Part shown: positions 45,614 through 47,442 of the stretch, one piece after another | Numbering within the stretch: position 1 is the first letter of the stretch | How the letters are laid out: each line of letters starts with the position of its first letter | Assembly: GCF_003334335.1 (NCBI RefSeq) | Contig: NZ_QOWQ01000022.1 | Direction: 5' to 3' (one strand) | Origin: Escherichia coli | Lineage (GTDB): Bacteria; Pseudomonadota; Gammaproteobacteria; Enterobacterales; Enterobacteriaceae | Length of the DNA: 64,000 nucleotides | Position numbers and translations under genes: made by a program | The notes under the pieces: generated by a model | What the model was told of the DNA's origin: nothing | What the model saw: the letters and a program-made list of their open reading frames with translations, nothing else | Database searches by the model: none

Positions 45614-45651
45614 GTTCTCTGTAAGCCTTATTTTATTGAAGCACGCAGGAT

Positions 45652-45687
45652 AGCTAACACGTGTACGCTGAACAAGTCCGATCAGTT
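45652..45687 (-). promoter_or_regulatory. fabA operator region: FabR box (AGCGTACACGTGTTAGCT) and adjacent FadR box (AACTGATCGGACTTGTT)
   Basis: Both motifs read on the minus strand at 45652-45669 and 45671-45687, just upstream of fabA and overlapping the 3' end of ycbZ. Confidence 0.7.
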
Positions 45688-47442
45688 CGGAATAAACCAG
45701 TTCAGCCAACGTAATGGCCATGGAAAACGGTGACGTCCTTCCTGTTGCGATGCTTGCGCGATACGTTCCTGGATGGTTTGCATCAGCGTCGTTTGGCCTT
45801 CGCCATCCCACACCAGATTTAATAATAACGGCAGTGCGTCAGTCACATCGTCTACTGCCCAGATGGTGAATTTGCCTTCTTCTACCGCTTTCACCAGTTC
45901 ACTGTGAAGACTTAAATGGCGAACGTTAGCAGTGGGGATAATGACACCTTGTTTCCCCGTTAACTCACGTTGCTGGCAAATAGCAAAGAAGCCTTCGATT
46001 TTCTCATTTAAACCACCGACCGGCTGGACGCGGCCGAACTGATCGACTGAACCTGTGATAGCGATACTCTGATTCACCGGCACATCGGCGAGGGCGCTTA
46101 TCAGGGCGCAGAGCTCAGCCATCGAGGCACTATCGCCATCCACTTCACTGTATGACTGCTCAAATGTCAGCGATGCTGAGAAGGGGATCTGTTGCTCAAG
46201 CTGTAGTTCCGACATCAGGAACGCCTGCATGATCATCATCCCTTTCGCATGGATATTGCCGCCAAGCTCCGCTTTGCGCTCGATGTCGGTGAATTCACCA
46301 TCGCCAATATGCACAACGCAGCTAATGCGAGAAGGTTCGCCAAAAGCGCGTGGATGACCCGGAAATTCAATGACCGACAGGGCGTTAATTTGCCCGATGC
46401 GTTCGCCTTCGGTTTCAATCAGGATTTGCTCCTGAAGGATCTCATCCTGCATACGTTCAGCGAGGAAACCTTCGCGCCATTCACGCTGCTGCAGCATTAA
46501 GTTTAGCTGCTCGCCGGAGAAGGTGTCGCCATCACACAGGGAGGCGACCTCTTTACACTGGCGGAGGATCCACTGCGGGCTAAGCGGAAGTGTTTCTTGT
46601 TCACCGGTGTAGCGTACTGCTTCGCGGATAAGTACCGGCCAGGCATCCGCTCCCGGTGCAGGTAAGTGATTATGTCTGGCGGTAAATGTCACCCAGCGAC
46701 ACCACTGGCTTACTGACTCCGCATCGACAATCTGCAGAGTATCTTCAAATTCGCTATAAATAGCCTGCTCTGAAAGCTCTGGCTCCATCTCCTGGAAATC
46801 AGCCAATGATTCGCGTTCGCCTACCAGAATGACTTTCAGCTTCAATGGCATCGAAGGCACAGAGACGGGGAGAGGGCGGGACTCATCAAACGCAACCCAG
46901 TCAAAACGCCCGCGGTTAACGATATTTTTCAGCCGCATCCACAGCAGAGGTTGCGCCAGCAGTGTACGCAAAGAGATGATGAGAATACCGCCATTTGCCT
47001 GATGCACCAGACCAGGCTGCAGGGTAATGTCACCATTAAACTGGCGCAGGCAGCCAAAGAGTTGCTCCGCTTCTACCCAGTCGGCAGCGACAACTTGCGT
47101 TAAAGTCGCAAAATTATCATCTGCACTCACTGCGTGACGTAAGCGGATGGTGTGGCCGGAAACCTCATAGTGACCGCCCACCAGTTGATCTGCATCGCTT
47201 TGTAGCGTACGCGCGGCATCGGCAATAAGATTCAGATACTCAGACTCTTCCGGGGCCTTCGCCAGCATAAAAGAGGAGGATGCTCGCGGATGCAGCAACT
47301 GCTCCAGCGCAAATTGCAGTCGTGGTTGAGTATCACTGAATAAAGGATCGTTTTCGTCAATCAAATGTGGCTGAGCAAATATTTCCTGATAGCTATCGGT
47401 ATCAGGAACCAGGTCACGCCATGCAAGTTTCGTAATGGTCAA
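45682..47442 (-). CDS. ycbZ: Lon-like protease homolog YcbZ
   Basis: 586 aa ORF with C-terminal Lon protease-like domain. Confidence 0.9.

Follow-up and report, generated by a model that had tools for sequence, protein, structure and literature searches.

The question raised by the fabA promoter region of Escherichia coli is whether its operators lie within the coding sequence of the upstream gene ycbZ and, if they overlap it, which of the two constrains the other. The FadR/FabR module of fabA is the textbook case of dual control of unsaturated fatty acid synthesis. The FadR activator site and the FabR operator of K-12 fabA are said to go back to work by Henry and Cronan in 1991 and 1992, McCue and colleagues in 2001, Zhang and colleagues in 2002, and Feng and Cronan in 2009 and 2011. 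In a 64,000-nucleotide stretch of E. coli DNA (RefSeq assembly GCF_003334335.1, contig NZ_QOWQ01000022.1; hereafter the window), the initial annotation recognized both boxes, placed them within the 3′ end of ycbZ, and presented the locus as regulatory DNA constrained by an overlapping coding sequence. Herein, the identity, position, and conservation of the two boxes are described, and our comparison suggests that the constraint runs from the operator to the end of ycbZ.

Results and Discussion

Gene context of the fabA operators

The window belongs to the E. coli chromosome and carries the minus-strand order ompA, matP (plus strand), ycbZ, and fabA, followed by rmf and pqiCB on the plus strand, as read from the open reading frame list and two RefSeq annotations. 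A 701-bp query around the fabA operators found matches in all 5426 complete E. coli genomes, and the 131 bases around the operators are those of K-12 MG1655 with no differences. K-12 coordinates equal window coordinates plus 970857. By our own mapping, with curated coordinates available via secondary sources, the FadR site corresponds to K-12 positions 1016528–1016544 and the FabR site to 1016509–1016526. The 87 bases from 45614 to 45700 are unchanged in 5370 of the 5426 genomes. At least one base of this promoter stretch differs from the window in the other 56. Four matching places for the 87-bp stretch lie on plasmids, not on chromosomes.

The 3′ end of ycbZ reads ...TTT ATT CCG AAC TGA, and the fabA ATG occupies 45613–45611 (Table 1). 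From the ycbZ stop to the fabA ATG, the spacer measures 68 bp, in agreement with the earlier estimate of roughly 70 bp. No terminator-like site was found on the minus strand between ycbZ and fabA. An Rfam scan of 44500–48200 at E ≤ 1 gave no match in 45614–45700, and elsewhere in the scanned region returned only sub-threshold terminator-like matches. On the other side of fabA, a GC-rich hairpin, aaacctccgcattgcggaggtttc, stands between the convergent rmf and fabA genes (window ∼45035–45075). It resembles a shared bidirectional terminator, and its region gave only sub-threshold leader/terminator-like matches in Rfam.

Table 1. Features of the ycbZ-fabA region in window coordinates
Feature	Coordinates	Strand	Remarks
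fabA CDS	45095..45613	−	172 aa, stop included; 3-hydroxydecanoyl-ACP dehydratase/isomerase
Predicted −10 hexamer TATCCT, FadR-dependent promoter	45647..45652	−	Overlaps 3′ end of FabR box; from sequence, published placement, and the −19G mutation
FabR (TetR-family) operator, imperfect 18-bp palindrome AGCGTACACGTGTTAGCT	45652..45669	−	Exact match, palindrome detected
FadR (GntR-family) site of the fabA promoter, AACTGATCGGACTTGTT	45671..45687	−	Exact match, identical to published probe
ycbZ stop TGA	45682..45684	−	FadR box positions 4–6 (C-TGA-TC); from open reading frame list and annotation
ycbZ CDS	45682..47442	−	586 aa, stop included; annotated “AAA family ATPase” / “putative ATP-dependent protease YcbZ”
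Degenerate E. coli counterpart of the upstream palindrome, AACTGGTTTATTCCG	45688..45702	−	ycbZ codons N-W-F-I-P
CpxR box GTAGAagaagGCAAA	45871..45885	−	−272 to −258 from fabA ATG; PMC7083825; exact single match in window

Identity of the FadR and FabR boxes

The FadR box is a 17-bp pseudo-palindrome that matches the experimentally defined FadR site exactly, lies 74–58 nt upstream of the fabA ATG, and is conserved upstream of orthologues in FadR-bearing species. The FabR box is an 18-bp imperfect palindrome of the AGCGTACACGTGTTAGCT type with an ACAnnTGT core; a FabR core, ACAnnTGTnnnnT, has been proposed (PMC4804515). It stands directly downstream of the FadR site and over the promoter core, the latter overlap being taken from the literature. 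A single base (C, 45670) separates the two boxes on the minus strand. Each box occurs once in the window, where 0.12 matches to AACTGATCGGACTTGTT and 0.06 matches to AGCGTACACGTGTTAGCT would be expected by chance at up to 3 mismatches.

A published probe settles the identity of the sites. The 56-nt E. coli fabA probe fabA_ec-BD-F, TTTATTCCGAACTGATCGGACTTGTTCAGCGTACACGTGTTAGCTATCCTGCGTGC, is listed for FadR gel shifts, and both the FadR site and the FabR palindrome are marked on it (PMC4537474, Table 2). This probe equals window 45697..45642 base for base, so the assignment of the two sequences as the fabA FadR and FabR boxes is right. FadR binding to the fabA probe has been published by gel shift and by SPR (PMC4537474, PMC4259882, PMC5733061). 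Compared with the K-12 fabA promoter, the element is the same one, with identical sequence, order, spacing, and distance to the ATG. We are therefore highly confident that the two motifs are the well-studied FadR activator and FabR repressor sites of the composite E. coli fabA promoter module, with coordinates that rest on secondary sources. The operator pair is real, non-random, and already known, and the initial annotation named it rightly but erred on how it relates to ycbZ.

Overlap of the boxes with ycbZ

The FadR box shares its first 6 of 17 nt with ycbZ, namely the last codon AAC (Asn586) and the TGA stop. The FabR box overlaps ycbZ by 0 nt and lies wholly within the 68-bp spacer. Neither site is embedded in the sense codons of the upstream gene: 3 sense nucleotides and the 3-nt stop fall within the 17 nt of the FadR box, and none fall within the FabR box. 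The placement of both boxes within the 3′ end of the ycbZ coding sequence was thus wrong for FabR, which is fully intergenic, and exaggerated for FadR. The accompanying statement that the boxes overlap the last codons of ycbZ holds in that the FadR box does overlap the gene, but the overlap amounts to one sense codon plus the stop and does not extend to FabR.

Conservation across related loci

A FabA-seeded scan with one genome per species yielded 80 loci, which belong to Enterobacterales, Pasteurellaceae, and Vibrio, and 78 of these have a same-strand ycbZ homologue upstream. With a recognizable module defined as a FadR box with ≤4 mismatches and a FabR box with ≤5 mismatches, the 17+1+18 layout was found in 53 of the 78 loci (Enterobacterales and Vibrio). 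In 45 of these 53 (45 of the 78), the ycbZ stop occupies FadR box positions 4–6, as TGA in 44 and as TAA in 1. These 45 loci comprise all 26 Enterobacteriaceae, Pseudescherichia, Hafnia, Edwardsiella, Serratia, Yersinia, Rahnella, Budvicia, some Pantoea, and Vibrio penaeicida. The FadR box has 0–1 mismatch in all 27 Enterobacteriaceae-type loci (the 26 Enterobacteriaceae and Pseudescherichia), and it is recognizable in Vibrio, Haemophilus, and Shewanella. Two loci outside the 45, from Haemophilus (para)phrohaemolyticus, show the same TGA-in-box overlap with a FabR spacing that differs by one base.

Other lineages have a different arrangement of stop and box. The ycbZ stop lies 2–20 nt upstream of an intact box in Morganellaceae and two Vibrio species. 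Several Erwiniaceae retain the stop position, with TAA as the codon, but show decay of the left FadR half-site. In Pectobacteriaceae, ycbZ stops 19 nt earlier (ending ..FPWFFR, then stop) and the E. coli-type FadR box is degenerate; FadR control of fabA may have been relocated or lost in this family. The degenerate box of Brenneria, Pectobacterium, and Dickeya (L029, L031, L032, L034, L048) reads GACGCAACAGACTTGCT, and the FabR palindrome of these loci is intact. An apparent ycbZ reading frame running through both boxes in Photorhabdus and one Pectobacterium was rejected, because tblastn had aligned across an in-frame stop (..RWLG-stop-F); the true stop lies ∼10 nt upstream of the box.

The composite FadR-FabR architecture is common to the fabA modules of E. 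coli, Shewanella oneidensis, and Vibrio, and the FadR site of the latter two has been validated by gel shift and reporter fusions (PMC4537474, PMC5733061). The Shewanella oneidensis and Vibrio modules differ from that of E. coli in their flanking genes and in their spacing to the ATG. Unlike in E. coli, the stop of the ycbZ homologue lies just upstream of the box in 2 of the 3 Vibrio loci.

Direction of constraint

Per-position counts were made on 28 distinct module sequences from loci pre-filtered by the mismatch thresholds above. The most variable positions of the FadR site in this set are positions 1 and 2, which are the first two bases of the last ycbZ codon and read AA, GG, AG, GT, or AT across genera. 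At position 3, which is the wobble position of that codon, 26 of the 28 modules have C, and 44 of the 45 overlapping loci have NNC (AAC, GGC, or AGC) as the last ycbZ codon. The core TGATCGGA-TTGTT hardly varies among the 28 modules, and the ACA..TGT core of the FabR box is invariant. On the protein side, the three YcbZ residues before the stop vary widely (IPN, SAN, NHN, NHG, NQS), and the last residue is N, G, or S depending on the locus. Conservation in a genus-level alignment peaks over the boxes and not over the last three ycbZ codons.

The fabB promoter of E. coli offers a comparison within the same organism. Its module, TGGCTGATCGGACTTGTTC-GGCGTACAAGTGTACGCT, has the FadR core CTGATCGGACTTGTT, the one-base gap, and a FabR palindrome directly downstream in common with fabA, with a few differences in the palindrome. 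Unlike the fabA module, it is overlapped by no upstream open reading frame, and its positions 1 and 2 are GG instead of AA. The FadR sites of many fad genes have G at the A of CTGATC. The idea that this A is present in fabA to make the ycbZ stop was ruled out, because fabB has the same A with no open reading frame over it.

The variable positions 1 and 2, the near-fixed wobble C, the poorly conserved end of YcbZ, and the fabB core outside any reading frame together suggest that the constraint runs from the operator to the end of ycbZ and not the reverse, on a comparative basis with counts that ignore phylogeny. The operator would supply the stop of ycbZ, an in-frame TGA that belongs to the CTGATC half-site, and would hold the wobble base of the final codon. 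This use of the half-site TGA may be ancestral and older than the divergence of Enterobacterales, Vibrionales, and Pasteurellales, the end of the gene having been set by the operator.

The opposite reading, that both operators are embedded in the 3′ coding sequence of ycbZ and that the need to encode YcbZ limits the regulatory DNA, is very unlikely. In its favor, the AAC codon and the TGA stop do fall within the FadR box, an overlap kept in 45 of the 78 loci. However, no part of the FabR box lies in ycbZ, the FadR box has only 3 sense nucleotides in common with the gene, and positions 1 and 2 are free to vary between clades together with the last residue. Furthermore, fabB carries the same core with no reading frame over it, and Morganellaceae and two Vibrio species have kept the box unaltered with a stop that lies upstream of it. 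The coordinates already contradict this reading for FabR, and for FadR the comparative data point against it. Even less probable, to the point of being negligible, is a chance resemblance of the motifs to the FadR and FabR consensus without any role here. A match to a consensus may be spurious in general, and a generic consensus sigma-70 scan of 45400–46000 returned no promoter, a result that is expected, and uninformative, for an activator-dependent promoter. Against chance stand the exact identity to experimentally used and annotated sites, the 0.06–0.12 matches expected even at 3 mismatches, the deep conservation upstream of fabA across three orders, and the genetic evidence on the region of the FabR site; the idea is refuted by binding and genetic data in the literature.

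A further possibility is that the overlap of stop and operator is itself functional and selected, with ycbZ termination or FadR/FabR roadblocks coupling the expression of ycbZ and fabA. The overlap is kept in Enterobacteriaceae, Hafniaceae, Yersiniaceae, Budviciaceae, some Erwiniaceae, one Vibrio, and two Haemophilus, and a read-through ycbZ-fabA operon has been reported, with no terminator found between the genes. We nevertheless consider this coupling improbable, as Morganellaceae and two Vibrio species lost the overlap and kept the module, and the several Erwiniaceae that keep the stop as TAA while the FadR half-site decays resemble a case of simple positional inheritance. An operator that sets the end of ycbZ remains our preferred reading of the overlap.

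A second FadR-like palindrome upstream

Many non-Escherichia Enterobacterales carry a TGG-N5-CCA palindrome, AACTGGTTyAACCAg, 12 nt upstream of the FadR box and inside the ycbZ codons N-W-F-N-Q/H. In E. coli the palindrome is lost, and AACTGGTTTATTCCG stands in its place (read from 45702 to 45688). It is intact at about −86 from the fabA ATG in loci L015, L018, L021, L022, L030, L033, L037, L039–L042, L044, L046, L049–L051, L054–L056, and L062, and it stands at −141 in L059. In the five Pectobacterium, Brenneria, and Dickeya loci (L029, L031, L032, L034, L048) the palindrome follows the earlier ycbZ stop and is therefore non-coding, and the canonical box is decayed there. Their palindrome keeps TGG and CCA around a variable center. 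In Pasteurella bettyae, the same 17-mer, AACTGGTTTAACCAGGT, adjoins the FabR box in the usual place of the FadR site.

Codon choice offers a further view of this element. Of the loci encoding W-F-N-[H/Q], 16 of 17 use AAC for the Asn whose codon contributes the initial C of CCA, against 2 of 6 where other residues follow, in a small and phylogenetically dependent sample. Many of the compared ycbZ genes prefer AAT overall. These patterns hint that AACTGGTTyAACCAg is a second FadR site under selection at the DNA level. A second functional FadR site may be present within ycbZ codons of many non-Escherichia Enterobacterales and may have been kept as non-coding DNA in Pectobacteriaceae. If true, this would be a real case of a transcription factor site maintained inside a coding sequence, and of site turnover. 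Taken jointly, the ancestral stop-in-operator arrangement and the second functional FadR site within ycbZ codons form a tentative extension that we regard as possible but rather doubtful.

Promoters and regulation of fabA

In the published layout of fabA, FadR covers the −40 region and FabR the −10 region (PMC3462791). The FabR site holds the mutation PfabA(−19G>A), a suppressor, and the FabR region contains a second promoter (PMC11226057). On the basis of sequence and secondary statements about the transcription start, the main fabA start would lie at ∼45639–45641, roughly 27 nt upstream of the ATG. With this start, the FadR box would span about −47 to −31 and the FabR box about −30 to −13. 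In the published mechanism, the main fabA promoter is activated by FadR bound at about −40, and long-chain acyl-CoA releases FadR. FabR over the spacer and −10 region represses fabA, and it also controls the weaker promoter inside its own site, which takes over without FadR.

Three fabA starts have been described, S1 activated by FadR, S2 repressed by FabR, and S3 induced by acid and located 203 bp upstream of the ATG (PMC7083825). The −203 position of S3 corresponds to window ∼45816. This start requires a CpxR box that spans −272 to −258 relative to the fabA ATG (PMC7083825, its Table 1 and text). For ycbZ and fabA, an operon that has both an internal and a secondary promoter has also been reported (PMC4161252). 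In view of the missing terminator between the two genes, transcripts originating from ycbZ, among them the CpxR-dependent S3 transcript with its start within ycbZ, would read through the module and traverse the occupied operators into fabA.

The CpxR box and S3 resemble the FadR and FabR boxes in being fabA regulatory DNA associated with ycbZ. Unlike those boxes, they lie truly inside the ycbZ coding sequence, the box 190–200 bp upstream of its stop. The CpxR box, GTAGAAGAAGGCAAA, is embedded well inside ycbZ in the window, and it illustrates regulatory DNA within a coding sequence better than the FadR and FabR boxes do.

Conclusions

For E. coli itself, these observations matter little. The useful outcome is a correction of where the fabA operators lie, which is essentially between the genes, and of what their small overlap with ycbZ constrains, which is more probably the gene end than the operator. 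Two comparative points, namely the deeply conserved stop within the operator and the possible second FadR site inside ycbZ codons of other genera, would be of interest only to specialists in fatty acid regulation or in overlapping genetic information.
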